From a virus (Duplodnaviria > Caudoviricetes): a stretch of 64,000 nucleotides of DNA. The notes beneath the pieces are model-generated. The model did no database searches. It was not told where the DNA came from and worked only from the letters and a program-made list of their open reading frames with translations. Shown here piece after piece: positions 41,272 to 56,800 of the stretch (positions are counted from its first letter, which is position 1; every line of letters begins with the position of its first letter). Location of the stretch: IMG/VR virus record IMGVR_UViG_2700989080_000001, positions 1 through 64,000 of that record; one strand, 5' to 3'. Position numbers and translations under genes: made by a program.

Positions 41272-41295
41272 CAAACACCCCCACAGGTGCCCCCG

Positions 41296-41350: not shown

Positions 41351-41468
41351 GTCGCATCTAAAACACGGCTTCTCAATTTTTCCCGGGGAGGAATTTTGGG
41401 ATTAAGTCTTCAAGAATCGCATATTTTACACACCCTATAATGAGACCCCTATGAAAGGAAAGATCACT

Positions 41469-41741: not shown

Positions 41742-41799
41742 GTCTCCGCCGCACTGAGATGCCACCCAGGCATTTCAGTTTTCCTACAGAGGAGTTAAC

Positions 41800-42015: not shown

Positions 42016-42068
42016 ACGTCGCACAGAATACACGCCCTATAATGAAACCCTCGACGAAAGGACCAATC

Positions 42069-42242
42069 ATGAACGACAAGATTGCTGCCGTCAAGAATCA
42101 CGTCAAGAAGCACCGCGCGAAGTATGCGGTTGCAGGAACGCTAGTCGTCTGCACCGTCATCCATATTCGCATCGTGAGCAACTTGAACAGGTTCCTCGAC
42201 GACCACGATCTGATGGACATGTACTACACCAACGGAGAGTAA
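42069..42242 (+). CDS. Cassette gene, small membrane protein
   Basis: Follows divergent leader; one TM; terminator ~42248-42285. Confidence 0.6.
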   Translation: MNDKIAAVKNHVKKHRAKYAVAGTLVVCTVIHIRIVSNLNRFLDDHDLMDMYYTNGE

Positions 42243-42341
42243 CAACGAACTGGAATGCCAATCTACACACGGCATTTCAGTTTTTGCCTTTCGCAAGAAT
42301 TACACGCCTTATAATGAGACCCCTACGAAAGGACGCCCATC

Positions 42342-42620
42342 ATGAACAACAAGATCGCTATCGCTGCCCTTGCTGTTGGAGCACTTGCCGTCGCTGGGAT
42401 CGCCACAATCAACTGCTTGCAGATTACTCGCGAAGAGGAAGCCAAGCGTGCCGAGTTCAAACGAAATGAAGAACTCAACGTCCACGCCGTCACCCTTGCC
42501 GCGATGCGAATCAGCGAACGTTTGGAAGCTGGCGATCACTTCGCGTCGGTGAATGACCTGACAGACAACTTCAACGAAGAGATCAAGTTCCAGAAGATTG
42601 CTGTCCGATTCGATAGCTGA
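42342..42620 (+). CDS. Cassette gene, N-terminally anchored protein
   Basis: Follows leader; IAIAALAVGALAVAGIA; terminator ~42625-42662. Confidence 0.65.
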   Translation: MNNKIAIAALAVGALAVAGIATINCLQITREEEAKRAEFKRNEELNVHAVTLAAMRISERLEAGDHFASVNDLTDNFNEEIKFQKIAVRFDS

Positions 42621-42699
42621 ATCGAAAGCCTAAACCCACATGCTACACGGGTTTTAGGTTTTACCAATCGCAGAAAAAACACGCACTATAATAGAAGGA

Positions 42700-42773
42700 G
42701 AGACTCGTAGCTCAGTTGGAATGAGCGTCGTCAGCAATGACGAAGGTCGCAGGTTCGAGTCCTGCCGAGCTCT
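42700..42773 (+). ncRNA. tRNA-like RNA with non-canonical anticodon arm (GCAA tetraloop), no encoded CCA
   Basis: TA-GCTC-AGTTGGAAT-GAGC D arm; TCGTCA-GCAA-TGACGA; AGGTC variable loop; GCAGG-TTCGAGT-CCTGC T arm; bulged acceptor stem; own promoter and T-run. Confidence 0.75.
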
Positions 42774-42837
42774 TCTTTTTTTGCCTTCGCAGAAAAAACA
42801 CGCACTATAATGAGACCCCTACGAAAGGAAAAAGAAC

Positions 42838-43050
42838 ATGACGAACCAGAATGGTAACGAACTCTTCCTTAGCGAGAGCCTTCGAGAGAAGCTGCGCAAT
42901 CTCAAAGACACCTCCGTTCCGCCGCAGATGGTAATCAATCCCGTCTACGTCAACGAAGCTGTCAGTGAGATCAACAAAGCCATTTCCGAGCTCCCCGCCA
43001 AAGAGAAGCGTCGTCCCTTCGGATTCATCACCGATCGATTCCGTAAGTAA
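42838..43050 (+). CDS. Cassette gene, hypothetical protein
   Basis: Follows leader; terminator ~43055-43092. Confidence 0.6.
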   Translation: MTNQNGNELFLSESLREKLRNLKDTSVPPQMVINPVYVNEAVSEINKAISELPAKEKRRPFGFITDRFRK

Positions 43051-43122
43051 AATCCAAAACCACAAGTCCAAGCTACACGGGCTTTTGGTTTTATCGATCG
43101 CAGAAAAAACACGCACTATAAT

Positions 43123-43253
43123 GAGAAGGAAACTTCTTCTATAAGAGAAAGGCGAGACGCGAATGCGTAGGTACGACACCTACCCGCCTGGCGCAAAGAA
43201 CAGTAATCACGAGTTTTCAGCGGACCGTGAGCCCATGTTCTCTTATAGTTTTT
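43123..43253 (+). ncRNA. Candidate structured ncRNA
   Basis: Promoter copy without coding leader; GAAG-GAAA-CTTC hairpin; CTATAAGAGAA/TTCTCTTATAG closing stem with nested helices; T-run. Confidence 0.6.
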
Positions 43254-43400
43254 GCCTATATTTACCTGAATTCGTCAGAGTGACGTTTTAGCCCATACCC
43301 CGGGTAGGGTCAAAACGTGGTTCTGTCCACTTCATGTATTTTTACGTAGGAATCGCATTAAAAACACACCATATAATGAGACCCCTACGAAAGGATTACC

Positions 43401-43652
43401 ATGATCAACGAGCTTAACACCATCAAGCAGATCGTTGTCAACAACCCCAACGTTGTCAAAGCCACCGTTGCTGCCGGACTGTTCGTCGGAGCCGCTGTTG
43501 TACTCAAGCGTAAGAAGGATAAAGAAGTCCTTCTCGCCGGAGGTGCGCAGTGGATGACCGTCGAACAGTACGAGAAGCATGTGGCCGACAAGGAAGGTGT
43601 TGACCGCAACGACCTCCTTGAGGACGAGTACGTCGTCATCGACCCCAAGTAA
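43401..43652 (+). CDS. Cassette gene, small membrane protein
   Basis: Follows leader; TM then KRKK; terminator ~43659-43691. Confidence 0.65.
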   Translation: MINELNTIKQIVVNNPNVVKATVAAGLFVGAAVVLKRKKDKEVLLAGGAQWMTVEQYEKHVADKEGVDRNDLLEDEYVVIDPK

Positions 43653-43766
43653 GATCCAGAACTGAACTCCCTAACACGGAGTTTCAGTTTTATTCTTTCA
43701 CGGACAAAGGTCTCCAACCGCATAAATTACACACCCTATAATGAGACCCCTATGAAAGGAACTATC

Positions 43767-44030
43767 ATGGAAATCAAGACTGAGATCAACGCAAAGATCG
43801 ATTCCACCAAGAAGTTCGTAAACGACCACAAAGTCGCTTTCGCCTATGGCGCAGGCCTTGTTGTCGGAGTCACCGGAATGGCCATTGGCATTAAGCAAAT
43901 GAACGCTCTGGTGTTGACCCACAACAACCTCAACCACTTGCAGAACGGCGGCGTGATCGCTTACGAAACGAAGTTGGGAACGATCCTCGCGTGGGTCAAA
44001 CCCGATTCTATCGACATCCCCATCACGTAA
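43767..44030 (+). CDS. Cassette gene, small membrane protein
   Basis: Follows leader; one TM; hairpin ~44036-44071. Confidence 0.65.
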   Translation: MEIKTEINAKIDSTKKFVNDHKVAFAYGAGLVVGVTGMAIGIKQMNALVLTHNNLNHLQNGGVIAYETKLGTILAWVKPDSIDIPIT

Positions 44031-44096
44031 GTCCACAAGCTTGAAGCTCCCTAACACGGAGTTTCAGCTTTGCCATATTCTCGACAAGGAGTTCTA

Positions 44097-44333
44097 GTGT
44101 CCAAGGTCCAATTGCTAAGACTGATCGGATCGCTGTTCATCATCGAGACCGCAATCCTCTTCAAGATCGCTTCGGATCTTCACGATCGGAATCGGGACTT
44201 CGAAACTTCGGATGCGCTTTTGAATTACTGTCTCGACAAGGTGAACGAAGGCGAGGGATTCAACGATTTCGATCTTGTTGCGTTGAACACGCTTCTCGAG
44301 ACGAATGGTGCTATATTTCACAAAGGCCTCTAA
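44097..44333 (+). CDS. Hypothetical protein with hydrophobic N-terminus
   Basis: AAGGAG RBS before GTG ~44097. Confidence 0.5.
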   Translation: MSKVQLLRLIGSLFIIETAILFKIASDLHDRNRDFETSDALLNYCLDKVNEGEGFNDFDLVALNTLLETNGAIFHKGL

Positions 44334-44393
44334 CGCCACATAAATCGCAGAAAAAACACACCCTATAATGAGACCCCTATGAGAGGATATGCC

Positions 44394-44486
44394 ATGACCG
44401 CTATCGTTGCCCCCGTGCTCATCACCGCCTTCCTGGTGGCGCTGTACATGATCGCACCGAAGCTTGCTGGTTACATCACCAAGTAG
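44394..44486 (+). CDS. Cassette gene, 30-aa hydrophobic peptide (not in ORF track)
   Basis: MTAIVAPVLITAFLVALYMIAPKLAGYITK between leader copy and hairpin terminator ~44491-44535. Confidence 0.65.
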   Translation: MTAIVAPVLITAFLVALYMIAPKLAGYITK

Positions 44487-44569
44487 ATCGAAAAGCTTGA
44501 AGCTCCCTAACACGGAGTTTCAGCTTTCTGTTTTTCCTCTCACCCACACCTATCCGAAAGGCCATATCT

Positions 44570-44830
44570 ATGCGAACCCTCGTCTCGAACCTCATCATCT
44601 CTCTCATCGACCGCCTCATCAATCTTATTGAGAAGACGGAGCGAAAGATCGATGATGTGGACAAAAAGCTCGCGGACCCTGTTCAGTCACGAGAGATGAT
44701 CATGAACTCGTTCCTGTTCAAGGTTACCGTGCGCATCTTCAATGTCATCGACAGGATCAGTCCTAAGACAGGCCGATATTTGGTTCGAGTCATGGAGAAG
44801 TTCGTCGCGAAGCGCAAAGCAGCCAAGTAG
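44570..44830 (+). CDS. Hypothetical protein
   Basis: GAAAGG RBS. Confidence 0.45.
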   Translation: MRTLVSNLIISLIDRLINLIEKTERKIDDVDKKLADPVQSREMIMNSFLFKVTVRIFNVIDRISPKTGRYLVRVMEKFVAKRKAAK

Positions 44831-44869
44831 CACACACCCCGCCACACCTATATTTGAAGGACTATCACC

Positions 44870-45049
44870 ATGCAGAAGGCAGCACTCATTTTGTCCGCTC
44901 TCAGCCTCGCCACGTCCGTCACGACGCTTGCCGTTATTCTCGGTGGCGTCAAGAAGCTGAACGACGACATCCAGGACATCCGCAAGAAGACCAACGACGC
45001 CATCGGCAAGATGAAGGCTGCTCTCGTCAGTCTCGACTTCCGAATCTAA
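44870..45049 (+). CDS. 59-aa membrane/coiled-coil protein (not in ORF track)
   Basis: GAAGGA RBS; MQKAALILSALSLATSVTTLAVILGG... Confidence 0.55.
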   Translation: MQKAALILSALSLATSVTTLAVILGGVKKLNDDIQDIRKKTNDAIGKMKAALVSLDFRI

Positions 45050-45080
45050 TTCTCAAACCAACAACAAAAGGAGTATCGAC

Positions 45081-45365
45081 ATGTCCGCATTCAACGAATT
45101 CCTCCGTAACAGCCCGGAGTGGATTTTCTACATCAGCTTCGCCGGCCCTCTGCTCGTCCTGTCCATCCTGGTTCCGATATTCGATCGTCGTCGGAAGAAG
45201 GTCAAGGCGATTCGTCAGGCGCACAAGACCGGCCTGATCCAGAAGCGCTCCGAGCGTCACCCTAACCTCGATCGCTCCGGCATCATGGTCACGAAGGTGT
45301 CGACTTGTAAGGACGTCCCGTCCGACTACTTCGATCGCGTCAGCGAATTCCGCGCAAGCCTCTAA
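45081..45365 (+). CDS. Membrane protein
   Basis: AAGGAG RBS; one TM then basic patch. Confidence 0.55.
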   Translation: MSAFNEFLRNSPEWIFYISFAGPLLVLSILVPIFDRRRKKVKAIRQAHKTGLIQKRSERHPNLDRSGIMVTKVSTCKDVPSDYFDRVSEFRASL

Positions 45366-45383
45366 GAAAGGTTCTCCTCTGCA

Positions 45384-45608
45384 ATGCTTTCAACCATCAT
45401 CGACGTTCTGTGGGGCGTACTCATCGTCCTCTTGCTGATCGTCGGTCTCATCGTCGTGGTAGGACTCATCACTGGTTGGATGGCTGTCGTGTGGACCTAC
45501 GTCACGCGATTTGTCAATGCCTACCGAACGGCTTCTCGTGAGCTGGAAGCTGCCGAGGAACGCGAAAGACTGAACGAAAGCGACGATCCTTACGGCAAGC
45601 TCGACTGA
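45384..45608 (+). CDS. Membrane protein
   Basis: Long hydrophobic N-terminus. Confidence 0.55.
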   Translation: MLSTIIDVLWGVLIVLLLIVGLIVVVGLITGWMAVVWTYVTRFVNAYRTASRELEAAEERERLNESDDPYGKLD

Positions 45609-45646
45609 CCCGATCTATCATCCATATCTGAACAACCTGGAGCATC

Positions 45647-46453
45647 ATGAACTTCTCTGTCCTGGCGAAGAACCTCGAACGATTCGCGGTCGCCAATTCC
45701 CCCGCAATCCTGACCGGTATCGCTGTCACCGGCACCGTCGCAACTGCTGTTCTCGCCGGTAAGGCGTCATTCAAGGCCGCGAAGATCATCGCCGGCGAAG
45801 AAGAGAAGCTCAAGGACCGCATGGTCGAGGTCTCTGACGAAGAGGAGGGCGACTCAGATTCTGAGTCGACTCTCGACACCAAGCAGAAGACCCTTCTGGT
45901 CTGGAAGCTCTATATTCCGGCAGCCAGCACCTGCGTCACGACCGTCATGGCCATGATCGCTGCCAATCAGATCGGTACCCGACGCACCGCTGCGATGGCG
46001 GCTGCATATTCTCTCTCGGAGAAGGCGTTCGGCGAGTACCGTGAGAAGATCGTCGAGAAGATGGGTCCGAAGAAGGAAGAGGCGGCTCGTACCGAGATCG
46101 CTCAGGAGCGTGTCGCACGCACTCCGGTTCCCTCGAACCAGGTTGTCATCTCCGGCAACGACGTTCTCTGCTTCGATCAGCACAGTGGTCGTTATTTCCA
46201 CAGCACTATGGAAGAGCTGAAGAAGTCTCAGAACGACACGAACTACCGGATCATCAACGACGGCTACCAGAGCCTGAACGACTTCTATGAGCGAATCGGT
46301 CTCGACATGGTCCCGACCGGCGAAGAGCTCGGCTGGAACACAGACACGAAGTTCGAGCTATATTTCTCGACCGTGCTGTCTCCCGACCAGCGACCCTGCA
46401 TCGCCATCGAATTCGTCAAGGGTCCCATCACCAACTACTACAAGGTCCACTGA
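45647..46453 (+). CDS. Conserved phage protein (DUF6353-like, from recall), paralog of 51514
   Basis: NSPAILTG, AAAYS, SLNDFY..IG...GW motifs shared with 51514. Confidence 0.6.
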   Translation: MNFSVLAKNLERFAVANSPAILTGIAVTGTVATAVLAGKASFKAAKIIAGEEEKLKDRMVEVSDEEEGDSDSESTLDTKQKTLLVWKLYIPAASTCVTTVMAMIAANQIGTRRTAAMAAAYSLSEKAFGEYREKIVEKMGPKKEEAARTEIAQERVARTPVPSNQVVISGNDVLCFDQHSGRYFHSTMEELKKSQNDTNYRIINDGYQSLNDFYERIGLDMVPTGEELGWNTDTKFELYFSTVLSPDQRPCIAIEFVKGPITNYYKVH

Positions 46454-46489
46454 CCACCATCATATTTACAAGTTAGGGGAGGATCTACC

Positions 46490-46744
46490 ATGCACCACAA
46501 AGAAGATCGTGAATTCACCTATGAGATGGGCGTGGATGAGCCTATCAACCCCGACCCGGATATTGCCGGTCGCATGGTGGAGAAGGCGGTCAGCAAGTGT
46601 CAGTACGGCTGCAAGCTCTACGAGCACCCGAGCGCACATGTCATCGTGCTCTCGCACAACTCGTCCTACGGTTGCAAACGCACCAAGGACGATATTCTGA
46701 GTGACTTCACCAAGAACCGTCACAAGGAGCCCTCCGATGCCTGA
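46490..46744 (+). CDS. Small Cys/His protein
   Basis: CQYGCKLY...HNSSYGC; GGAGGA RBS. Confidence 0.5.
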   Translation: MHHKEDREFTYEMGVDEPINPDPDIAGRMVEKAVSKCQYGCKLYEHPSAHVIVLSHNSSYGCKRTKDDILSDFTKNRHKEPSDA

Positions 46745-46937
46745 GCGCGAGTATTGGATGGTTCCGCTCAGTGAGATCGTTCCGAAGGACACCTGGAGTC
46801 GACTTCTCGTCACGGTCTCGGGGTTCTTCACTGATCTTCTGTTGGTCGACGGTAGCTACGAGAAGATCTATGTCATCACTGAAGAAGTACTTCCGACTCA
46901 GGACGATATTCTGACCAAGGCGTTGGTCGATGCCTGA
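46737..46937 (+). CDS. Hypothetical protein (MPEREYW family)
   Basis: N-terminus shared with 47541. Confidence 0.5.
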   Translation: MPEREYWMVPLSEIVPKDTWSRLLVTVSGFFTDLLLVDGSYEKIYVITEEVLPTQDDILTKALVDA

Positions 46938-47169
46938 CCAGATGACCGTCACCCTCAAAGAGCTCTTCCCCGAATCTGTGTGGGAGGAGCTCTTTCGTAG
47001 GGCGGCTAAACACAAAGCCGCTTACGCCTCGCATATTGTCGTCACCTCGTCCGGAGAAGTCAAGGAGTTGATCACCACTCCGGATTGGACCTGGTACGGT
47101 TCTCCGATTTGGGTCAACGCGAATGCCAACCAACTTTCTATAGGTATCGAAGGAGTTTCTGATGTGTAA
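46930..47169 (+). CDS. Hypothetical protein
   Basis: Overlapping start/stop gene string. Confidence 0.5.
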   Translation: MPDQMTVTLKELFPESVWEELFRRAAKHKAAYASHIVVTSSGEVKELITTPDWTWYGSPIWVNANANQLSIGIEGVSDV

Positions 47170-47548
47170 TTATCCCGGCCCGATGATGGTTTCCATCGGA
47201 GACAGCGTTCCCGAAGAGACCTGGAATCGGATCAAGCTCCAGTGCGCGCTCAACTTGTACGGACGGATGATCCCCGTCGTTCAGGAAGGTGTGCGAGGCG
47301 TCGGTAACGCATTTTCCGCGATGGCGAAGGCTGTCCGGAGCGTCGACTTCGGGCCCGTTGCGAAGAAGCTGGAATCTTTGAAGATTCCGTACAACGTAGA
47401 CGAATCTCTCCACATGCGGGGTTTCGACATCAACAGCGACATGATCGAGTACGACGGTATTCCGCCGATCGACATGGATGACTATATCTTCGACGAGGGC
47501 TACAGCTACAGCGACATCGATGGAATCCGAGGAGACACCCATGCCTGA
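47162..47548 (+). CDS. Hypothetical protein
   Basis: AAGGAG RBS; gene string. Confidence 0.5.
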   Translation: MCNYPGPMMVSIGDSVPEETWNRIKLQCALNLYGRMIPVVQEGVRGVGNAFSAMAKAVRSVDFGPVAKKLESLKIPYNVDESLHMRGFDINSDMIEYDGIPPIDMDDYIFDEGYSYSDIDGIRGDTHA

Positions 47549-47654
47549 GCGTGAGTACTGGATGATCCCCATTGGTGATCGCATCTCCAAGGATGTTAAG
47601 GACGTCATCGGAATGCGGGCGCTGAAGAACTTCGTATATTCCGAGGGGTCGTGA
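47541..47654 (+). CDS. 37-aa protein (MPEREYW family, not in ORF track)
   Basis: GAGGAG RBS; MPEREYWMIPIGD... Confidence 0.5.
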   Translation: MPEREYWMIPIGDRISKDVKDVIGMRALKNFVYSEGS

Positions 47655-48070
47655 TGTGTGATACAGGAGAATGCCGGCCCTGCCGACTGGAAGATCGTCT
47701 GACCGATCGTGCGATGGGGACTACCCGAGAGTATATTGCCTTCGTGAAGCTTCCGACCGTCGAGCAGAACATGGCGAACAGAAAGATCCACGGTCTGTCC
47801 CTTATTTCCTCGACCAACTCAAAGGTCAAGCGACAGACGCCTCCTCCCGGAAGTCTCTCTTCCAAAGAGAACATCGCAGCTCGTAAGAAACGAGAGTCTG
47901 CCAACCGTAAAGCAAACCGAGAGCTTCGTGATGGTCGTCTATATTCTCTAGGGTGTCCAGAGCACGGTACGCCTTCCGGCTACAAGCATTGGTACTGTCG
48001 GTGTATCCCTTGTACGAACGCGCACACCAAGGACCACAACGCTTCCTACCACAGGTCTAAGCTGGCGTGA
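47651..48070 (+). CDS. Putative Zn-binding protein
   Basis: EHGTPSGYKHWYCRCIPCT, shared with 48245. Confidence 0.55.
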   Translation: MMCDTGECRPCRLEDRLTDRAMGTTREYIAFVKLPTVEQNMANRKIHGLSLISSTNSKVKRQTPPPGSLSSKENIAARKKRESANRKANRELRDGRLYSLGCPEHGTPSGYKHWYCRCIPCTNAHTKDHNASYHRSKLA

Positions 48071-48252
48071 AGCGAATCATATCCTGGTGGCGTGAGTCTC
48101 GAAAGTGGAGACACTGCCCACACCGACGTTTGCGTGGCGTCTACGGAGACTGGGTCTATCAGATGCCGAACCAAAGGCGTCTTATTTGTCTAGATTGCGG
48201 AAACTCTCTGGACGGACCAGTTTCCCTTGCTGAGGAGCAAAACGATGACTGA
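48067..48252 (+). CDS. Small Cys/His protein
   Basis: CPH...CLDCG; overlaps both neighbours. Confidence 0.45.
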   Translation: MKRIISWWRESRKWRHCPHRRLRGVYGDWVYQMPNQRRLICLDCGNSLDGPVSLAEEQNDD

Positions 48253-48499
48253 TGCGGAACCCCCAATCGTCGGAACGGCAGTTACACTCGAAGACAAAGA
48301 GCGCTGGCGCAAAAACCACAAGAACAAGCTCGCGATTCGCAAGATGAATCGGAAGATGATCAACGGTAGACTCACGTCGACTCTTCTTCAAGAGCATGGT
48401 ACACCTTCCGGATACAACAACTGGTTCTGTCGATGCATCCCATGCACCCAGGCATACAACGGCCGCAAGCGTGACAACCGCAAAAAGCGCCGTCGATAG
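48245..48499 (+). CDS. Putative Zn-binding protein
   Basis: EHGTPSGYNNWFCRCIPCT. Confidence 0.55.
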   Translation: MTDAEPPIVGTAVTLEDKERWRKNHKNKLAIRKMNRKMINGRLTSTLLQEHGTPSGYNNWFCRCIPCTQAYNGRKRDNRKKRRR

Positions 48500-48582
48500 C
48501 CTCAAAGACTTATCTTCCCCAGAGACGTCTGCATCGCAGAAAAAACACGACCTATAATGAGACCCCTATGAAAGGAACAACA

Positions 48583-48819
48583 ATGTCTGACCAGAACGAG
48601 AACATCGTCATCGAAGAAGACGCAACCCCCGTTCGTTTCCGTCGCCTCAAGAAGGTCCTGAGCAAGATCGAAGAAAACTCAGCCATCATCGCCATCGCAA
48701 CTGCGACCGCGGTGAGTGCTGCTGGAATCATCGCGCTCAATCGACTCGACAAGAAGACGACGGAGACGATCGAGGTTGCCGAACCCAAGGTGATCGAGAC
48801 CGCTCCCACGGAAGACTGA
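48583..48819 (+). CDS. Cassette gene, small membrane protein
   Basis: Follows leader copy 11; one TM; terminator ~48838-48885. Confidence 0.65.
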   Translation: MSDQNENIVIEEDATPVRFRRLKKVLSKIEENSAIIAIATATAVSAAGIIALNRLDKKTTETIEVAEPKVIETAPTED

Positions 48820-48905
48820 TATTCCCCCACAGAGATCGAAAAAGAGAAAGGCTTAGTAAAGAAATTTACTAGGTCTTTCCTTTTTGCTTTCACGGACAAA
48901 GAGGA

Positions 48906-49439
48906 TTGACGCCACAAATGGATCATCAAACATTCAACGTATATTTGGAAGAGAAGTTCGATCACATCCGATCGGTTCTCGGAACCAAGGCTGCCGAGTA
49001 CGTTCCGAACGAAGGCGGCTCTCGTTTCCACAACTTCGATGTTGCGGCGGCATTCAACAACGAGTCTCCCGAAAAGGCTCTCTGGGGAATGCTGACCAAG
49101 CACCTCGTGAGCATCGCAGACATGGTGAAAGACGACCCGACCGACCACTCTATGGCTGTGTGGGACGAGAAGATCGGCGACGCTCTCAACTATCTTCTGC
49201 TGCTCAACGGCATGGTGAAGGATCACCACGAAACGAAGAATCTGGTGCAGTTCCACTCCGGTCTCGTGAATGCCGTTCTTCCTCCCGGCACGAACGTGAT
49301 CGACACCCACCTGAGGCTGGAGAAGGACGGAAGCGTCACGAAGCTGGCCGGACACCTGTCGGGTTTGGCGAGTGGTGGAATGGAACAGCCTCGTACGGAC
49401 GGACCCGAGCGCGTCAAGTTCTGCCGCAACAACCACTGA
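48906..49439 (+). CDS. MazG-like/nucleotide-modification-associated all-helical domain protein
   Basis: KAAEY...FHNF...KHLVSI...EKIGDALNY pattern. Confidence 0.55.
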   Translation: MTPQMDHQTFNVYLEEKFDHIRSVLGTKAAEYVPNEGGSRFHNFDVAAAFNNESPEKALWGMLTKHLVSIADMVKDDPTDHSMAVWDEKIGDALNYLLLLNGMVKDHHETKNLVQFHSGLVNAVLPPGTNVIDTHLRLEKDGSVTKLAGHLSGLASGGMEQPRTDGPERVKFCRNNH

Positions 49440-49492
49440 CTCGGTCATATTTCTGACCATCGTAAGCAACACCACACAAGGAGCACAAAGTA

Positions 49493-50125
49493 ATGCTGAA
49501 GCAGACCGTTGAGTACACCGACTTCGACGACAACCGTTGTGCAGAGACTCTGTACTTCAACCTCACCAAGACCGAGCTCGCCGAGAACGCTCACCTCACG
49601 GACCGGCTGGAAAAGATGCAGAAGATGTTCGGTGGTGAGAAGCGTCAGCTCGAGACGTCGGAGATCCAGCAGCTTCTCGATCTGGTCAAGACGATCATGC
49701 GCATTTCCTACGGTGTTCGCAGCGCCGACGGAAAGCGATTCATCAAGACGGAGGAGCAGTGGGTCGAATTCACCCAGACTGCAGTCTACGACGAGTTCCT
49801 CATTTCCATGTTCACGGATCCGGACAAGATGTTTGCATTCATGTACGGCATCATGCCGGCGGACATGCGTGAGCAGGCGAAGGTAGAGGCAGAGCGACTC
49901 ATGTCGGAGCGGACGAACCAGTCCACCGATATTCCGACGCCTCCTCCTGCTGCATCCGCTACACCTGTGGACATGCCGATCACGCAGGCCAACCCTTCGG
50001 TCCAGATCACGATGGATCCGAATCAGTCGGCAGGGCCTCAGCCTACCCAGGAGCAGATGGCCGCATACATGCGTGACCAGCAGGCTCGCGGCTTGATGAC
50101 GCAGCCGAACTACCTGCAGGGCTGA
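49493..50125 (+). CDS. Conserved hypothetical protein
   Basis: MLKQT..Y.DF...LYFNLTK.E...YG.RS.DGKRFIK; AAGGAG RBS. Confidence 0.6.
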   Translation: MLKQTVEYTDFDDNRCAETLYFNLTKTELAENAHLTDRLEKMQKMFGGEKRQLETSEIQQLLDLVKTIMRISYGVRSADGKRFIKTEEQWVEFTQTAVYDEFLISMFTDPDKMFAFMYGIMPADMREQAKVEAERLMSERTNQSTDIPTPPPAASATPVDMPITQANPSVQITMDPNQSAGPQPTQEQMAAYMRDQQARGLMTQPNYLQG

Positions 50126-50132
50126 TCTATAT

Positions 50133-50251
50133 TTGAGCGAGAGGGGTTTGGCAAGGGTCCTTTGTAGGGGTCTCGCCCTAGTCCGGATGCCAAACTTAAA
50201 CGACAGCCGTAGCGCTGTGGGGAAGCAGCAAACATGCGCCCTCGATCTCAA
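50133..50251 (+). ncRNA. Candidate antisense regulatory RNA complementary to the cassette leaders
   Basis: Loop 50158-50174 TCCTTTGTAGGGGTCTC = reverse complement of GAGACCCCTAC(G)AAAGGA; enclosed by AGGG/CCCT and GTTTGGCA/TGCCAAAC stems. Confidence 0.65.
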
Positions 50252-50320
50252 TCATATTCTCGTGCCTGATTCGCACGAAAAACACACCCTATAATGAGAC
50301 CCCTACGAAAGGACCTGGTA

Positions 50321-50566
50321 ATGACCAAGCTGGAAATGCTGAAGCTCGCCGTTTCTTCGATCGTTGGTGTCGGTACCTCCAAGATCGTTCGATCCATCAT
50401 TGCCAACAATGTCGAAATCGATTCTCCGGTAGACCAAGTTACGGTCACCGCGGGATCGTTCGTCGTTGGCGCGATGGTTGCGGACGCATCGAAGGACTAC
50501 ACCGATGCCAAGATCGACGAGATTGTCGAGATCTTCAAGACCATCAAAGAAACCACCAAGAACTGA
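50321..50566 (+). CDS. Cassette gene, hypothetical protein
   Basis: Follows leader copy 12; terminator ~50577-50614. Confidence 0.65.
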   Translation: MTKLEMLKLAVSSIVGVGTSKIVRSIIANNVEIDSPVDQVTVTAGSFVVGAMVADASKDYTDAKIDEIVEIFKTIKETTKN

Positions 50567-50641
50567 CAGACAGCTCAAAACTGAAAAGCCCGTAACACTA
50601 GGCTTTTTAGTTTTCATCTTCGACATATGAGGACCTATATT

Positions 50642-51319
50642 ATGGAAGACTACCCCAGCAACAGCCAGAAGCCGAAGGCCGCAAAGAAGCCGGTCGCGGG
50701 ACAAGAAGGTAAGGACGAGCAGAAGAAGGTCGTAAAGCAGATCACCGTTGGCGAAGTCACTCGTCGTAAGAAGCCGCTCGGCCGACGAGTCATGGAGACG
50801 TTCGGTGGCAGTGACGCGCAGAGCGTAGGTGCGTATATTGTGCAGGACGTTCTTCTTCCCGCAGCCAAGGACATGGTTGCTGACGCAGTCTCGCAAGGCA
50901 TCGAGAAGATGCTCTTCGGAGAGGCTCGGGGTAGGCGTGGTCGATCGTCCGCACCAAGTCGTCCGGCTGGTTCGGGTTACACGAGCTACAACAGCTACAG
51001 CCCAAACAATCGTTATTCTGTGAACCCGGGACATCGACCGGAGCCTCGTCGAGAGATGAGCCACCGTGGCCGAGCCCTGCACCACTTCGACGAGATCGTT
51101 CTCGATTCTCGAGCCGAGGCAATGGAGGTTCTTGAGAACCTGGACGCCATGACTCAGGAGTACGGTACTGCCAGCGTTTCCGATCTGTACAACATGGTCG
51201 GTATCACGCCAAGCTTTACGGACGAGAAGTGGGGCTGGGTCGACATGCGAGCGGCTACAGTGCGTCACATCAGCGGTGGATATTTGCTCGATCTTCCGCG
51301 TCCGGAGAACATCGGTTAA
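50642..51319 (+). CDS. Conserved hypothetical protein
   Basis: DVLLPAAK, YG.ASVSDLY..VG, KWGW motifs. Confidence 0.6.
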   Translation: MEDYPSNSQKPKAAKKPVAGQEGKDEQKKVVKQITVGEVTRRKKPLGRRVMETFGGSDAQSVGAYIVQDVLLPAAKDMVADAVSQGIEKMLFGEARGRRGRSSAPSRPAGSGYTSYNSYSPNNRYSVNPGHRPEPRREMSHRGRALHHFDEIVLDSRAEAMEVLENLDAMTQEYGTASVSDLYNMVGITPSFTDEKWGWVDMRAATVRHISGGYLLDLPRPENIG

Positions 51320-51358
51320 ATCGATGTAAGTATGGCGCGCCAAAAGGGAGGTGGCGTG

Positions 51359-51502
51359 ATGTCTAGCGATATTCTCTTGAAAGCCAACGCACTCAAGGGA
51401 GCGTACCCAGGAAGTCCAACCTGGAAATCCAAAGTGGACAAGATGAGCGACAATCAAATCGTGGCCGTATATTTGCGGCTCAAGCGAGAGAACAAGGTTT
51501 AG
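51359..51502 (+). CDS. 47-aa protein (not in ORF track)
   Basis: GGGAGGTG RBS; AYPGSPTWKSKVDKMSDNQIVAVYLRL. Confidence 0.55.
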   Translation: MSSDILLKANALKGAYPGSPTWKSKVDKMSDNQIVAVYLRLKRENKV

Positions 51503-51513
51503 GAGACCAACAC

Positions 51514-52407
51514 ATGTCGATCAAGAACACTATCATGTCTGCCGGTGGCAAGAACATGGCCATGACCATGCTCAAGCTCCAGAAGAACAGCCCGACCATT
51601 CTGTTCGGCGCCGGCGTTGTCGGTGTTGTCGGTACGGTCGTTCTGGCTTCGCGAGCAACTCTGAAGGTCAGCGATATCGTCGACGAAGCGTCCAAGAACC
51701 TGGAAACGATCAACGCGAACGCAGGCAGCGAGGAGTACTCGGCTGAGGATGCGGTCAAGGACAAGGGCGTCGTCTACGTCAAGACGGCCCTCGATGTCAC
51801 GAAGCTCTACGGTCCCGCGTTCATCCTGGGTGTCGCCTCGATCGGTTGCCTTGCAGGCTCGCACAACATCCTGACCCGTCGCAACGCGGCTCTGGGTGCT
51901 GCCTACGCCGGCGTCGAGAAGGCCTTCCGTGAGTACCGCGGTCGTGTCATCGACGAGATCGGCGAGGAGAAGGAAGCTCGGATCTACCAGCCCGTCGAGG
52001 AGGTCGACGCTGTCGATGCCGAGGGCAAGAAGACCAAGGTCTCCGTTCCGACTGCTGTCGGTGGCTCGCCCTACAAGCGAATCTTCGATGAGAGCAACAA
52101 GAACTGGAACAAGCAGACCGAGTTCAACCAGATGTTCATCCGCACTCAGCAGAACTACGCGAACGACATGCTGCGTGCTCGTGGATACCTCTTCCTGAAC
52201 GACGTTTACGAGATGCTCGGCATCGAGCGCTCCAAGGAAGGCCAGATCGTCGGCTGGGCTCTGCCCGAGAACGGCAGCATGGGCGATGGCTACGTCGACT
52301 TCGGCGTCTTCAGCAATGTCCACCAGGGCATGAAGTTCGTCATGGGCGACGAGCGCTCGATCTGGCTCGACTTCAACGTGGATGGCAACATCCTCGAATT
52401 CGTCTGA
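51514..52407 (+). CDS. Conserved phage protein (DUF6353-like, from recall)
   Basis: NSPTILFG, LGAAY, FLNDVY.MLG, LDFNVDG; high codon bias. Confidence 0.65.
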   Translation: MSIKNTIMSAGGKNMAMTMLKLQKNSPTILFGAGVVGVVGTVVLASRATLKVSDIVDEASKNLETINANAGSEEYSAEDAVKDKGVVYVKTALDVTKLYGPAFILGVASIGCLAGSHNILTRRNAALGAAYAGVEKAFREYRGRVIDEIGEEKEARIYQPVEEVDAVDAEGKKTKVSVPTAVGGSPYKRIFDESNKNWNKQTEFNQMFIRTQQNYANDMLRARGYLFLNDVYEMLGIERSKEGQIVGWALPENGSMGDGYVDFGVFSNVHQGMKFVMGDERSIWLDFNVDGNILEFV

Positions 52408-52418
52408 GGTGTGAGGCC

Positions 52419-53303
52419 ATGAATTCCAACACCGGAATCATCGTGGCTTCTTCGTTGGCGTCCTGTGCCGTTGGTGCAGGCGCCGCTTATTTTCTCACGA
52501 AGAAGCACGTCACGAATCAGTACGAAGTCTTGATGGAGGAAGAGGTCGAGAAGGCAAAGCTATATTACAGCCAGCTCCACAAGACGGGGGACTTCTCCGA
52601 TCCCGTGAAGTTGGCTGAGGAGCGTCTCGGTTCGGATGATATTTCCGACGAGGACGATTCCGAAGAGGAGTCAGATGGTACGGACGACTCGGAAGTAGTT
52701 GTGACAGAACGAGTAGAGATCACTCGTGAAGAGCGTGTCAACTACAACAACATTCAGCAGCAGTACGTCGGGGACGACTCCGTACCGGAACGCCATATTC
52801 CGAAGCGCGATTTTCCCCGACCCGTCTCCCATCCCGAAGATGGCGAGAGCATGGAAAGCTTCGAACGGCGCTTGATCAAGCAAGCCTCTGACGAAGTACG
52901 TGAGAAGGCAGAACTATCTGGAGAGGAGGACATCGTGCGACGCAACATATTCGACACCCACGGACGCCTGCCAAGCGAAGAAGAATTGGACACCAGCATG
53001 CGAGGGAATGGCGAGCCTTATATCCTGACGCGTCAAGAGTTCGAGGACTGTGACCTCGACTACGATCAGAACACTCTCACCTATTTCGAGGGTGACAACA
53101 TCCTCGTCGATGAGCGTAACGACCCGATCAACAACGGTGTCGAGACCATCATCGGTGGTGAGCACAACTTGAGGTTCGGACACTGGTCGGAAGATGCGAA
53201 CGTGCTTTATATTCGCAACGACCGCCTGTCCATCGACTTCGAGATCGTTCGCTCCTCAGGCACCTATGCTGAGGAAGTCCTCGGATACACACCGGGGGAA
53301 TGA
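52419..53303 (+). CDS. Acidic hypothetical protein with N-terminal hydrophobic segment
   Basis: Long ORF; LTYF..D.ILVDE, LYIRND...DFEI. Confidence 0.6.
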   Translation: MNSNTGIIVASSLASCAVGAGAAYFLTKKHVTNQYEVLMEEEVEKAKLYYSQLHKTGDFSDPVKLAEERLGSDDISDEDDSEEESDGTDDSEVVVTERVEITREERVNYNNIQQQYVGDDSVPERHIPKRDFPRPVSHPEDGESMESFERRLIKQASDEVREKAELSGEEDIVRRNIFDTHGRLPSEEELDTSMRGNGEPYILTRQEFEDCDLDYDQNTLTYFEGDNILVDERNDPINNGVETIIGGEHNLRFGHWSEDANVLYIRNDRLSIDFEIVRSSGTYAEEVLGYTPGE

Positions 53304-53851
53304 TGGACGAGCCACTTGATGAGCGATATTTCAAATGGCTCTACGGTCAGGTGGCATCCGTCAAGTTGAGGAACCCTGGGCGGACCTACTGGTCTTTGCT
53401 CAAGGTTCTTCACACCACAGAGTTCGTGTGGCTGGTTCCAAACGACGACAATCGTGTGGAAGACGGACGCGACCTGAGAATGGAATTCGTCAACGAAACA
53501 GGCGCCGATATTCCCGACTCCGATTGGATGGCTTTCGGATGCTCCGTACTGGAGATGTTGATCGGGTTGTCTCGGCGCCTGGCGTTTGAGGCTGATGGTA
53601 CCGCGGGTCCGAGCGATTGGTTCTGGCATTTGCTCGACAACCTCAACCTCGGCGGATTCAACGACACATATTTCCGAACCGGAAGGCATGAGGAGTATGT
53701 AAAACACGTACTGGATACCGTCGTTTGGCGAAACTATAAAAGCGACGGGCACGGCGGTCTATTCCCACTGCGACGTCCACAAGAAGATCAACGTAAGGTA
53801 GAGCTCTGGTATCAACTCTCGTGCTACCTTTCGGAGGGACACGCGGCATGA
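53300..53851 (+). CDS. Conserved hypothetical protein
   Basis: YFKWL, DDNR..DG..LR, SVLEML, GGLFPL, ELWYQ. Confidence 0.6.
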   Translation: MMDEPLDERYFKWLYGQVASVKLRNPGRTYWSLLKVLHTTEFVWLVPNDDNRVEDGRDLRMEFVNETGADIPDSDWMAFGCSVLEMLIGLSRRLAFEADGTAGPSDWFWHLLDNLNLGGFNDTYFRTGRHEEYVKHVLDTVVWRNYKSDGHGGLFPLRRPQEDQRKVELWYQLSCYLSEGHAA

Positions 53852-53881
53852 TGGCGAACTAGGCATGAATTAAAAAGAGGG

Positions 53882-56800
53882 TTGGTGGACTTCTACACTA
53901 TCGGGGTGCGAACAATTGAGAAAGGCCCCCGGAAAGGTATGACGGAGCTATTTCCTGACCTTCGGGTCGGGCGCTCCAAAGATCTGATGGTCCGCGGCCG
54001 CTCATTCTACGCCATCTGGGATGAGACGGCCGGTCTATGGTCTACGGACGAGTACGATGTTCAGAGACTGATGGACGCGGAGCTTGAGGCGGAGGCCGAC
54101 AGGATTGAGAAGAAGGGTGACCCGCGCCCCTCGATCAAGACCATGTCGTCCTTCGGCTCAAACTCCTGGAGTCAATTCCGTAAGTATCTACAGAACATCA
54201 GCGACAACAGTCATCAACTCGACGAGAAGATGGCTTGGGCTGACACCGAAGTCAAGAAGACCGACTATGTGAGCAAGCGTCTCCCATATTGTCTCGCACC
54301 CGGCGACTACAGCGCATGGGACGAGCTCGTAGGGACGCTCTATAATGTGGAAGAAAGAGCGAAGATCGAATGGGCGATTGGTGCAATTGTATCCGGGGAT
54401 GCGAAGCGAATTCAGAAATTCCTGGTTCTCTACGGGCCTGCTGGGACAGGCAAATCGACGGTCTTGAACGTCATCCAGCAAATGTTCGAAGGCTACACGA
54501 CGACATTCGAAGCCAAGGCTTTGGGTATGTCGAGCGGAGCGTTTGCAACGGAGGTCTTCAAGAACAACCCGCTCGTAGCGATTCAGCACGACGGCGACCT
54601 CTCACGTATCGAGGACAACACTCGACTGAACTCGATCATCTCACACGAAGAGATGACGATGAACGAGAAGTACAAGCCCAGCTACACTGCGCGGGTTAAT
54701 GCTTTTCTGTTCATGGGTACCAACAACCCAGTCAAGATCTCTGACGCCAAGTCGGGCATTATTCGACGACTGATCGATGTGCATCCGACGGGCATCAAGA
54801 TTCCGCCCAATCGATACAACACTCTTATTCAGAAGGTTGATTTCGAACTGGGTGCGATCGCTCACCACTGCCTGGAAGTCTACAGGTCGATGGGAAAGAA
54901 CTACTACAACTCCTACCGACCGCTCGAGATGATGTTGCAGACCGATGTCTTCTTCAACTACATCGAGGCGCACTTCGATATTTTCAAGGAGCAAGACTCG
55001 GTCTCCTTGAAGCAGGCCTATGCGCTGTACAAGGAATTCTGTGACGACACCGGAATCGACAAGGTTCTTCCTCAGTACAAGTTCCGTGAGGAGCTTCGGA
55101 ACTACTTTGACGAATTCAAGGAGCGCGGCGTGGTGAATGGGCAGACAGTGCGAAGCATATATTCTGGCTTCAACGCGAACAAGTTCAAGACGCCACTGGG
55201 TGAAGACAAGCAAGTCTTCAAGTTGGTCCTCGATGAGTCGGTGTCGCTTCTCGACGATATTCTCAAGGATCAGCCTGCCCAGATGGGTCGGATCGGTCCT
55301 GATGGCGGAGAGATCCCCGAGAAGTACTGGACTGACGACGAGCGTTTGATCAACGGCGAGATGAAGAAGCCCAAGCCGTCTCAGGTCTGCTCGACGACGC
55401 TGAAGGATCTGGACACCTCGAAGGTCCACTTCGTCAAGGTGCCAGCGAATCATATTGTCATCGACTTCGACCTCAAGGACGACAAGGGTGAGAAGTCTCT
55501 GGAGCGAAGCTTGGAGGCTGCGTCCAACTGGCCGGCCACCTATGCCGAGCTCAGCAAGAGTGGTAACGGCGTCCATCTCCACTACGACTACACCGGAGAA
55601 GACGTCACTCAGCTCAGTCCCATATATTCCGAGGACATCGAAGTCAAGGTCTACACGGGCAACGGGTCTCTACGACGAAGAGTCATCAGATGTAACAACG
55701 TCCCTGTTGCCCCCATATCTAGCGGACTGCCGCTGAAGGAGAAGAAGGTGCACTCAGCCCAAACGATTCAGAGCGAGCGCAGCCTGCGCGATCTCGTCGA
55801 ACGGAATCTTCGTAAGGAGATCCACCCCGGCACCAAGCCGTCGATCGATTTCATCCACAAGATCCTCGCCGATGCACACAAGGACGGGATGACGTATGAC
55901 CTCACGGACATGCGCCCTCGTATTCTCGCATTCGCCAACAACTCTTCGAACCAGGCTATGGCTTGCTTGAAGACTGTGCAGTCGATGAAGTGGAAGAGCG
56001 ACGACTCCCCTGAGCGGGCTATCGGTCCTCAGGACGATATTCGTCAGCCGGCTACGACTCAGGCAGCTTCCCCCGCTGTCTCAGATCGTAAGGACGAGCG
56101 GATTGCCTTCTTCGACATCGAGGTCTACCCCAACCTCTTCCTGGTTTGCTGGAAGTTCGAGGGTGACGCCACGATGGTCAAGATGATCAACCCGAAGCCG
56201 GCAGACATCGAGCAGCTGTTCAAGCTCAAGCTTGTGGGCTACAACAACCGACGCTACGACAATCATATTCTGTACGCGGCGTTCATGGGATTCACCACCG
56301 AGGCGATCTACCAGCAGTCTCAGAAGCTCATCAACAACGAGCGGAGTGCGCTGTTCGGTGAGGCGTACAACATCAGTTACGCCGATATTTACGACTTCAG
56401 CTCGAAGAAGCAGAGCCTGAAGAAGTTCATGATCGAGCTCGGCATCACCCACCAGGAGATGGATATTCCGTGGGATCAGCCGGTTCCGGACGAGCTGGTC
56501 GAGAAGGTCATCGAGTACTGCTGCAATGACGTCAACGCGACTGAGGCAGTGTTCGAGGCTCGTAAGCAGGACTTCGTCGCACGACAGGTCTTGGCTGAAC
56601 TGAGTGGTCTTCCGGTCAACAACACGACCCAGGCGCACACAGCCAAGATCATTTTCGGGAACGATCGTCAGGCTCAGAAGAAGTTCGTCTACACGGACCT
56701 GAGCGAGGAATTTCCGGGCTACAAGTTCGACATGGGTAAGTCCGAGTATCGGGGTGAAGACCCCAGCGAAGGTGGTTATGTCTATGCAGAGCCGGGGCTC

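Follow-up and report, generated by a model that had tools for sequence, protein, structure and literature searches.

An open reading frame (ORF)-free gap at positions 50133-50251 of a tailed phage genome (IMG/VR virus record IMGVR_UViG_2700989080_000001; Duplodnaviria, Caudoviricetes) raises the question of whether it carries a regulatory RNA and, if so, what this RNA would act on. The stretch analysed, referred to below as the window, comprises positions 1-64,000 of the 78,064-bp virus record, and is ~84% identical to Rhodococcus phage ReqiPepy6 across the region of the gap. In an original prediction the gap was described as a structured RNA displaying a loop antisense to a leader that is shared by nine gene cassettes of the same phage. 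In the current study the gap was found to be a member of a conserved, unannotated structured element with four helices (P1 to P4), and the loop at the apex of P3 was found to change together with the leader from one phage lineage to the next. On the sequence evidence we lean slightly towards an antisense RNA that pairs with the cassette mRNAs at their 5' ends; in this phage the pairing would extend to their Shine-Dalgarno sequences.

Conservation and secondary structure of the element

An unannotated element of ~120 nt was found at the same place in the Gordonia cluster DJ phages Schwartz33, Nithya and Gill, and also in the Streptomyces phages Annihilus, RosaAsantewaa, GirlPower, LibertyBell and Scarif, where it follows a homologue of the gene at 49493. 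The element of ReqiPepy6 is 93% identical to that of the window, i.e. almost unchanged in sequence. A blastn search with the element matched 69 phage records (50 from Gordonia, 16 from Streptomyces, two from Rhodococcus and one 19-nt chance match). A covariance model of the 5' domain of the element (R1) scored the window element at 82.2 bits (E 1.6e-17). When IMG/VR was scanned with a 14-base pattern from the conserved core, at least 119 loci were obtained; R1 matched 42 of the first 100 (E up to 0.01), and with the remaining 19 loci and the seeds included there were at least 55 hits, representing at least 49 distinct sequences.

The helices of the element covary. Among 49 distinct sequences, 97.9% of 677 helix cells were paired, compared with 34.1-47.7% when the partners were slid by 1-3 columns, and 134 cells were changed on both sides, a number reached by none of 500 shuffles (32.3 +/- 5.1). 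Two-sided changes occurred at 6 of 10 pairs of P2 (98.2% of cells paired) and at 4 of 4 pairs of the P3 base helix (97.3%). RNAalifold, applied to a MAFFT alignment of ten phages, detected two-sided changes in 7 of 16 pairs. P2 alternates between GTTTGGCA / TGCCAAAC, GCTTGGCA / TGCCAAGC and GATCAGCA / TGCTGATC, being paired throughout, and further versions that are still paired (GATCTGCA / TGCAGATC and AGTCAGCG / CGCTGACT) were present among the ten named-phage sequences. The sequence of P1 differs in every lineage and its complementarity is kept: in 45 elements the mean z was -2.06 against shuffled flanks, and in 17 of these at most 5 of 200 shuffles were as good. In the window itself P1 is weak, being equalled by 27 of 200 shuffles. 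G-U pairs occurred at two invariant positions and in ~20 scattered cells, and since these would be A-C mismatches on the other strand, the plus strand is the folded one. The claim that the gap is a structured element was therefore borne out, and reading of the sequence placed the stems, the loop and the nine leader copies where they had been predicted. The parts of the element in the window are as follows.

50133-50251, plus strand: whole structured element, made up of the P1 closing helix, P2, the P3 hairpin, the conserved linker, the P4 hairpin and the 3' block
50134-50145, plus strand: 5' strand of P1 (TGAG ... GAGGG), partner at 50239-50250, also in the minimum free energy (MFE) fold
50146-50153, plus strand: 5' strand of P2, GTTTGGCA, forming a perfect 8-bp stem with 50188-50195
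50154-50157, plus strand: 5' strand of the P3 base, AGGG, partner CCCT at 50176-50179
50158-50174, plus strand: apical region of P3, the anti-leader sequence TCCTTTGTAGGGGTCTC
50182-50187, plus strand: unpaired joint TCCGGA from P3 to P2, invariant or nearly so in ten named phages
50188-50195, plus strand: 3' strand of P2, TGCCAAAC, in the sequence reading, the MFE fold and the family alignment
50196-50209, plus strand: invariant linker TTAAACGACAGCCG, of which TTAAACGACA is unchanged in ten named phages
50203-50218, plus strand: P4 hairpin (ACAGC / GCTGT), in the MFE fold and variable across the family
50233-50250, plus strand: conserved 3' block CATGCGCCC, followed by the 3' strand of P1

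The outer stems consist of TGAG (50134-50137) with CTCA (50247-50250) and of GAGGG (50141-50145) with CCCTC (50239-50243), both of which are also present in the MFE fold. The conserved unpaired parts of the family are TCCGGA(T)GC, part of the joint being fixed by the search pattern in the IMG/VR set, the linker TTAAACGAC(A/C)GCCG and the block (C)ATG(C/T)GCCC. By eye, the 3' block reads (C)ATG(C/T)GCCC where the linker is GACAGCC, and AGGCGCCC where the linker is GACCGCC. It was also noticed by eye that the A or C in the linker CGAC(A/C)GCC tracks CA(U)GCGCC or CA(G)GCGCC in the 3' block (window 50203-50241), which holds in 10 of 11 members of the C type. This A-U / C-G association may reflect a long-range base pair or a single clade event, and because of the latter possibility it was not counted as covariation. 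Across 45 elements the P4 region varies from 7 to 50 nt in length, and in 24 of them it contains CCCC, which might pair with the G-rich P3 loop.

A search of Rfam 15 with cmscan (38000-54000, both strands, E up to 1) gave only a tRNA at 42701-42773.

Complementarity to the cassette leaders

The P3 apex TCCTTTGTAGGGGTCTC is the reverse complement of GAGACCCCTAC, one bulged G and AAAGGA. In the window, TATAAT-GAGACCCCTAYGAAAGGA was found nine times, always on the plus strand (at 40942, 41436, 42310, 42806, 43372, 43737, 44364, 48553 and 50290), and never in 100 shuffles. The Y position is T in five copies and C in four, and the 44364 copy reads GAGAGG. The leaders, which are only ~25 nt long, provide the following targets.

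40948-40965, plus strand: leader target 1, with its promoter box from 40924
41442-41459, plus strand: leader target 2
42316-42333, plus strand: leader target 3
42812-42829, plus strand: leader target 4
43378-43395, plus strand: leader target 5
43743-43760, plus strand: leader target 6
44370-44387, plus strand: leader target 7 (GAGAGG variant)
48559-48576, plus strand: leader target 8, heading the operon that carries the element
50296-50313, plus strand: leader target 9, 45 nt downstream of the element, gene 50321-50566

The loop is thus complementary to a shared leader in the one-to-many manner that had been proposed (11 nt plus 6 nt across the bulge, against nine leaders). The 11-mer GAGACCCCTAC has an exact match on the minus strand of the window only at 50164-50174, and with up to one mismatch it gave 12 matches compared with 0.97 expected. 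Leader-like sites on the minus strand at 23665 and 41954 were considered and set aside as fitting chance; the latter lies inside an ORF and has one mismatch.

The repeat that precedes the leader is longer than the hexamer, as a box CGCA-N4-(A/T)(A/T)ACAC-N-CC lies upstream of TATAAT at a fixed 14-nt distance. Three additional copies of this promoter were found, at a tRNA-like cassette (42669), at a non-coding RNA (ncRNA) cassette (43099) and at 42020. The first two lack the leader and the third, previously placed at 42019, has a degenerate one, all as stated beforehand. These three cassettes keep TATAAT-(G)AGA and are without CCCCTAY.

Whether loop and leader change together in relatives had been set as a test in advance, and the outcome was positive. 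In most lineages the leader is GAGACCCCTA and the P3 apex contains (T)AGGGGTCTC. Lineages with other leaders are listed below, the leader being followed by the reverse complement of the loop.

L106: GAGACCACCCAC..AAAGGA; TGAGACCACCCACCGAAAGGA
L099: GAGACCCCCTACAG (five C); ACCCCCTACAG (five G in the loop)
L090: GAGAACCC; GAGAACCC
L035: GAGATAC...CTACTAAGGAG; GAGATACCCCTACTAAAGAG
L015: AGGAAACCCA; GAAACCCA
L066: GAGAACCCAAC; GAACCC

Mean duplex energies were calculated for the 64 combinations of loop and leader set among these six lineages, L100 and the window. After double-centring of the 8x8 matrix, all eight cognate residuals were negative (-2.2 to -6.3), and the cognate assignment was the single best of 40,320 permutations. 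A column-rank test of the raw duplex energies had been tried and was dropped as confounded by loop length and G content; the long loop of L129 binds every leader set well, and the raw ranking was therefore replaced by the residuals and the exhaustive permutation. Shuffled loops reached the cognate energy in 0 of 200 cases in 8 of 12 lineages, and in 1-6 of 200 in the other four.

Of 47 unique loops, 37 contain 7-13 nt that exactly complement one of the phage's own leaders. Across the family, the complement is a 7-13 nt block located where the leader begins. Its first position is the base that follows the TATAAT-like hexamer (+1) in 18 of the 37 loops. Of 25 loops that reach +1, only seven continue to -1, which is the chance rate (~25%), indicating that the target has an edge at the G following the hexamer.

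These features bear on the possibility that the similarity acts at the level of DNA, either as an inverted copy of a protein site over the start (an operator or roadblock) or as a plus-strand single-stranded hairpin serving as a priming site or origin. An inverted copy would co-vary with the promoters equally well, DNA hairpins tolerate G-T pairs, and the element lies directly before the replication genes in all relatives (a gp067 homologue follows it in 36 of 36 loci). In addition, AGGGGTC upstream of several promoters of the Streptomyces phages forms inverted repeats. However, a double-stranded operator needs neither covarying P1-P3 nor apical placement of the copy, and the copy begins at +1, omitting the conserved promoter bases. 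Its central 1-nt deletion would be a register shift for a protein and a mere bulge for RNA pairing, and the two invariant G-U pairs with the ~20 G-U cells better fit RNA. We regard a DNA-level function as very unlikely. An RNA acting on mRNA is favoured by several features together: helices that covary, a copy placed at the apex, its edge at +1, the loss of 1 nt in its centre, and RNA-only cassettes that are without CCCCTAY.

Promoter and RNA polymerase

The genome encodes, outside the window (74808-77522), a protein of ~905 aa with a GADFDGD loop and helix-turn-helix domains at both ends, which matches phrog_4291 ('RNA-dependent RNA polymerase') over its full length (E 0). This protein family had already been predicted, in a preprint, to be a crAss/YonO-like RNA polymerase typical of an actinophage supercluster and of Lactococcus 1706-like phages (bioRxiv 10.1101/842583). 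On the basis of PHROGs, the GADFDGD motif and this preprint, the ~905-aa protein is assigned as a predicted two-barrel single-chain RNA polymerase. A sequence search of the PDB with this protein gave only a match to helix-turn-helix repeats. ORF 7590-10160 was also considered as a polymerase candidate and was rejected, being a GDSL-lipase / lectin tail-type protein.

A tblastn search with the polymerase matched 248 phage records, including 95 from Arthrobacter, 55 from Gordonia, 54 from Streptomyces and 13 from Lactococcus. In the Arthrobacter phages Circum (L138), Gordon (L139) and Paella (L141) the promoter core CGC(G/A)-N-TTACA-N-GGGC-TATAAT-G/A was found, and Lactococcus phage P092 (L140) has nine copies of TTACA(T/C)ACCCTATAATG(A/G). 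A core common to phages of Actinobacteria and Firmicutes that share the enzyme is best explained as the promoter of this enzyme. The cassette promoter is therefore probably that of the two-barrel RNA polymerase, with a predicted start at the G of GAGACCCC. Such an assignment was not found in the literature. In a note on Gordonia phage Vardy (PMC9671010), the promoter-leader repeat is described as a 50-bp motif and read as a sigma-70 promoter. The original prediction had likewise allowed for TATAAT as a sigma-A -10 element, which is probably incorrect given that the core is common to Arthrobacter and Lactococcus phages with the two-barrel polymerase.

The helices of the two non-coding cassettes begin 1-2 nt after TATAAT (by eye, the 43117 hairpin included), and in P092 a Shine-Dalgarno-like GAAAGGA / GAAAGAAGG occupies +1 to +9. 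From these two clues and the +1 edge of the loop complement, we infer that transcription would begin at the base after TATAAT or 1-2 nt from it.

The P3 loop equals the template strand of the promoter from +1 to +11, and the element might be a decoy or template mimic that sequesters the polymerase or is copied by it; its scaffold would bind the enzyme and the cassette promoter class would be shut off, as 6S RNA or Ms1 do with the host polymerase. The exact +1 start in 18 of 37 loops agrees with this, as does the restriction of the element to polymerase-bearing phages among the own genome and the named relatives. The enzyme belongs to a family named 'RNA-dependent RNA polymerase' and has the GADFDGD catalytic loop, and members in which P3 is a stub imply a core role beyond pairing. 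Against a decoy, the match stops at +1, leaving out TATAAT and the upstream boxes that an open-promoter mimic should copy, and it lies in a hairpin loop instead of a bubble between long helices as in 6S RNA. Neither a large bubble, nor long helices, nor a copied -10 region, as expected of a 6S-like open-promoter mimic, was found in the element. CCCCTAY is absent from the ncRNA cassettes with the same promoter and therefore looks like a feature of mRNA, not of the polymerase. Many polymerase-bearing phages also lack the element. A decoy is accordingly held to be unlikely.

In a related version, to which we likewise give a low probability, the element would be a guide RNA for the RdRP-like two-barrel polymerase. 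The scaffold (P2, CCGGAUGC, UUAAACGACAGCCG and CAUGCGCCC) would be the handle for the enzyme or a partner; the exchangeable P3 loop would either trap the polymerase as a start-site mimic, in which case short RNAs would possibly be copied from the loop, or let the complex seize nascent 5' ends. If true, this would be a programmable RNA switch in non-canonical viral transcription, turning one promoter class off as the phage moves to its replication genes.

The phages that have the polymerase and lack the element were examined further. No match to the element was found in the whole records of the three Arthrobacter phages and Lactococcus phage P092, all with the polymerase and the promoter core; in 20-kb regions of the same phages with filters off, the best score was 13.9 bits (E 0.19). 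In the Arthrobacter phages no 8-mer at +3 to +10 of the leaders was common to two promoters (1 of 8, 1 of 9 and 1 of 2). In element-bearing phages a common leader 8-mer was present at 9 of 12 promoters in the window, 10 of 14 in ReqiPepy6 and 8 of 8 in LibertyBell. Circum, which is without P2 and P3, has only TCTTAAACGACCGC-TTAC-AGGCGCCC, which includes a remnant of the linker, after the gp064-like stop codon.

Some further observations concern the cassettes themselves. The tRNA-like cassette (42669-42782) contains a tRNA-Ala (agc) according to ARAGORN (42700-42775) under its own promoter copy; its acceptor helix seems to be extended to the first bases after TATAAT (AGAAG with CTTCT), and it has a T tract and no CCA. 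The ncRNA cassette (43099-43260) has ~140 nt of ORF-free sequence with a 5' hairpin AGAAG-GAAA-CTTCT and a 10-bp helix (TATAAGAGAA / TTCTCTTATA), followed by a T run. Relatives of it were seen in ReqiPepy6 (L001, about 11225-11540) and in Gordonia phages (GGCGAGAC...AATGTGTAGGTG). In the Streptomyces phages (L005-L009), AGGGGTC, the complement of the leader start, is located directly upstream of the TCGCA box at several promoters. An example from LibertyBell is GTAGGGGTCTCGCGAG...TATAGTGAGACCCCTAC, in which the promoter lies between inverted repeats of 7-11 bp. Such repeats were not seen at the window's own promoters.

Predicted pairing energies

In the window, the loop was predicted to form duplexes of -28.5 to -36.8 kcal/mol with the nine leaders (-16.0 to -24.4 net after opening), the strongest being that with the 50290 copy (-36.8, net -24.4 kcal/mol). 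Predicted pairing was weaker with the degenerate 42020 leader (-23.7, net -9.6 kcal/mol), the tRNA-like cassette (-15.5, net +0.2 kcal/mol) and the ncRNA cassette at 43117 (-12.1, net +3.1 kcal/mol). As a background, 41 of 2000 random 30-mers from the window reached -20 kcal/mol. In the family consensus the seed is located in the apical part of P3, above the covarying base. The apical GUCUC, predicted to be free in the window, complements the first five bases of the mRNA and is a plausible point of first contact.

Observations weighing against pairing

Several results count against the antisense interpretation or narrow it. The eight lineages of the permutation test were picked after their differing leaders were known. 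In the IMG/VR set the retrieval pattern fixes part of the conserved core, and the alignment was fitted to R1. Ten of the 47 unique loops have no exact leader complement of 7 nt or more, several of those loci being short. Moreover, co-variation of loop and leader cannot separate RNA pairing from an inverted copy acting at the DNA level.

The flanks beside the exact block look random (242 of 978 positions match in ungapped comparison), and wobble-compatible transitions beside the block are not enriched (137 compared with 173 incompatible ones). The anti-Shine-Dalgarno extension is thus lineage-specific and the wobble argument is not general; the extended 11+6 pairing is a lineage feature and not a rule of the family. 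Of the earlier claims, pairing over the Shine-Dalgarno sequence therefore stands for the Rhodococcus-phage lineage and a few others (TCCTTT) and falls for the family as a whole, and wobble-compatible leader variation is seen within the window and fails as a family signal.

The single-sequence fold of the gap is unexceptional. The plus-strand MFE is -45.3 kcal/mol (z -1.44), with 17 of 200 shuffles equally good, compared with a z of -2.27 and 5 of 200 shuffles for the minus strand, and it is therefore the comparison between phages that supports the structure as real. The MFE fold pairs UAGGG with CCCUA and UCC with GGA inside the P3 'loop', leaving GUCUCG and UUUG free. Because of these pairs, which involve 8 of the 17 apical nucleotides, opening of the apical stretch is predicted to cost 9.2 kcal/mol. 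A conformer of the family type, in which the P3 base is paired and the loop is open, has -36.4 kcal/mol compared with -45.3 for the MFE.

Finally, exceptions occur within the family. Leaders are rather variable in L035 and L099, in which the element is present. L059 has leader-type promoters and a P3 that is only a stub, and P3 is reduced in L113 and in Curtobacterium phage Yotsuba (26.7 bits). As members without the anti-leader loop keep the core, pairing does not account for the whole function of the scaffold, or at least of its 3' half.

Genomic context and origin of the predicted transcript

The gene upstream of the element is a homologue of gp064.

49493-50125, plus strand: gp064 homologue, with its stop codon 7 nt before the element

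Its product matches Pfam PF23803 (E 4e-56) and phrog_4282 (unknown function). Among 46 loci with sufficient sequence, 42 have a gp064 homologue upstream of the element; 15 of the matches end within 150 nt of the element and 27 more at 160-423 nt, the more distant ends being due to conservation of only the N-terminal part. The gene is the last of a three-gene operon (48568, 48884 and 49493), which is headed by leader copy 8 and ends in the element. The operon carrying the element begins with a canonical leader in the window and in all named relatives examined. The annotation of ReqiPepy6 gives small membrane or periplasmic proteins as the products of the cassette genes. A search for sequencing runs that contain the phage gave two DNA metagenome runs with small shares (0.06 and 0.05) and no RNA run.

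No cassette-type promoter belonging to the element itself was found between the 48553 promoter and the element, nor was a T-run terminator. The words TATATT / CATATT at 50128 and 50253 were considered as its promoter and rejected, since ATATT is a genome-wide one-strand word; in addition, no comparable word precedes the element in Gill or the Streptomyces phages. In the window ATATT occurs 128 times on the plus strand and its reverse complement AATAT six times; (C/T)ATATT is present in 76 copies, all from 14861 onward and in both genes and gaps, those at 50128-50133 and 50253-50258 bracketing the element. The proposed origin by read-through from 49493 fits the lack of an own cassette-type promoter and the position directly after the stop codon in all relatives.

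In the window sequence no terminator-type T run follows P2, P4 or P1, and such runs do follow cassette terminators (e.g. 42772-42782 and 43084-43094). The next gene is without a cassette promoter in ReqiPepy6, Schwartz33 and Gill and must be transcribed through the element, which can therefore be no efficient terminator.

This arrangement is also compatible with a structural module of the 3'-untranslated region (3'-UTR), for example one that stabilises the mRNA, provides a processing site or acts on the phage polymerase as a pause / antitermination signal, the likeness of the loop to the leader being a by-product of cassette recombination. The element is always immediately preceded by a stop codon and lies where the cassette region gives way to the long replication operon, its invariant linker survives the loss of P2 and P3 in Circum, and some members are without the anti-leader loop. 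A by-product, however, would not keep its complementarity through independent leader changes in at least six lineages, nor would it stay antisense, apical and starting at +1. There seems to be very little likelihood of a purely structural role.

The leader of the element's own operon suggests another possibility, namely action in cis only. The loop would pair with that leader (48559-48576), and the resulting 5'-3' mRNA loop would alter stability or translation. Alternatively, it would mask the next leader: read-through transcripts would hide 50296-50313, so that gene 50321 would be translated only from its own promoter. The canonical leader at the start of the operon agrees with the former, and the latter fits the lack of a terminator between the element and the next gene, the leader-type promoter ~45-130 nt downstream in the window, Nithya and most Streptomyces phages, and the 50290 duplex being the strongest. 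However, the next gene has no leader in ReqiPepy6, Schwartz33, Gill, Scarif and several contigs, and masking can therefore not be the general role. Pairing is also not restricted to cis, nine near-identical leaders being equally good partners, and 5'-3' pairing over 1.6 kb has no demonstrable kinetic advantage. Action in cis only is considered rather unlikely.

Proposed mechanism

According to the antisense model, a plus-strand RNA of ~120 nt would be made as the 3' end of the operon transcribed from the 48553 promoter, and processing might follow. The scaffold (P1, P2, the TCCGGA joint, the UUAAACGACAGCCG linker and the CAUGCGCCC block) would hold up the P3 hairpin, whose lineage-specific apex would pair with the initial 7-13 nt of mRNAs that the phage transcribes from its repeated promoter. 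For the phage of the window, the predicted partner of the loop is 5'-GAGACCCCUAY and then, across the bulged G, the Shine-Dalgarno sequence AAAGGA. The RNA would have the nine cassette leaders as its targets, including the one at the head of its own operon. On leaders this short (~25 nt), pairing at the 5' terminus should block binding of the 30S subunit; an alternative effect would be a change in 5'-end-dependent decay. The whole regulon of small membrane or secreted proteins would be hit together, the RNA most likely being a repressor or timer. Transcription of the element, the start of the mRNAs at the G following TATAAT, pairing of the two in vivo and the sign of the effect are all inferred from the sequence.

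Other features of the window

Four large ORFs in the region 115-10160 start with an Mtd_N domain (PF18454). Their bodies differ, consisting of a pectate-lyase-like beta-helix, a depolymerase C-terminal domain, or a GDSL lipase with a lectin. They look like a set of tail fibre / depolymerase proteins with a common N-terminal adaptor.

Comparison with known systems

The C4 antisense RNA of phages P1 and P7 is cut from a longer transcript, and its exposed loops are complementary to leader sites, by which expression is blocked; RNA and target are on the same strand and have the same direction of transcription. C4 is an immunity factor of temperate phages and controls one operon (icd-ant). It resembles the element in being a small structured phage RNA with loops that match phage mRNA leaders. 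Unlike C4, the element would have nine separately transcribed targets, which are located at the extreme 5' end of the mRNA, and no integrase was seen in the relatives. The two share no similarity in sequence or structure, the search of Rfam (38000-54000) having matched only the tRNA.

The CI RNA of P4 is processed and pairs with seqA and seqC in transcripts from its own promoter, causing premature termination within a single operon, and is likewise an immunity factor. The element would likewise pair with more than one complementary site. The folds are unrelated, with no Rfam match.

The actinobacterial 6C/B11 RNA has C-rich, homopolymer-rich loops and belongs to the trans-acting small RNAs (sRNAs) with a conserved seed and a regulon. 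Common to 6C-type sRNAs and the element would be a short seed in a hairpin loop (7-13 nt in the element), many target mRNAs near the ribosome-binding site and the same host phylum. The seed of the element, by contrast, is G-rich and its target C-rich, and its scaffold is a new family. Unlike those of bacterial sRNAs, the predicted targets of the element are identical by descent, as copies of a cassette, and do not form a diverse regulon; the seed varies between phage lineages and the scaffold is constant.

6S RNA, Ms1 and the put RNA of HK022 are RNAs that bind RNA polymerase. The loop of the element equals the template strand from +1 and travels with a phage polymerase, which provides a lead only, as the element has neither long arms around a bubble nor a copy of the upstream promoter.

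The 50-bp motif of Gordonia phage Vardy (PMC9671010) is the same promoter-leader repeat as that of the window. It has a TATAAT core and is present in five copies in the middle of a cluster DJ genome, beside small genes with transmembrane or signal motifs; the passages of the note that were consulted hold no mention of an inverted copy or an RNA element. No published description of the element was found: word searches gave only the Vardy note and the preprint of Koert et al., and no phage paper was among the top-ranked matches of sequence-string searches; the 2011 ReqiPepy6 paper (Summer et al.) may describe the promoter repeats. What is new is an RNA family with a fixed scaffold and a lineage-specific seed, which is predicted to target transcripts of the two-barrel polymerase's promoter class at their extreme 5' end.

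Significance

If the antisense interpretation holds, the element would represent a new and widespread family of regulatory RNAs in actinophages (at least 49 distinct sequences). It would link a predicted two-barrel polymerase, a cross-phylum promoter and the fixed leader of small-gene cassettes, three features of this phage supercluster that have until now been considered apart from one another, if at all, and would provide a directly testable model for the timing of an entire gene block. Hundreds of phages have been isolated on the hosts of the close relatives (Gordonia terrae, G. rubripertincta and Streptomyces), which are easily handled in the laboratory, and their natural seed and leader variants are ready compensatory mutants. 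The design of a seed on a scaffold might also serve as a programmable repressor in Actinobacteria.

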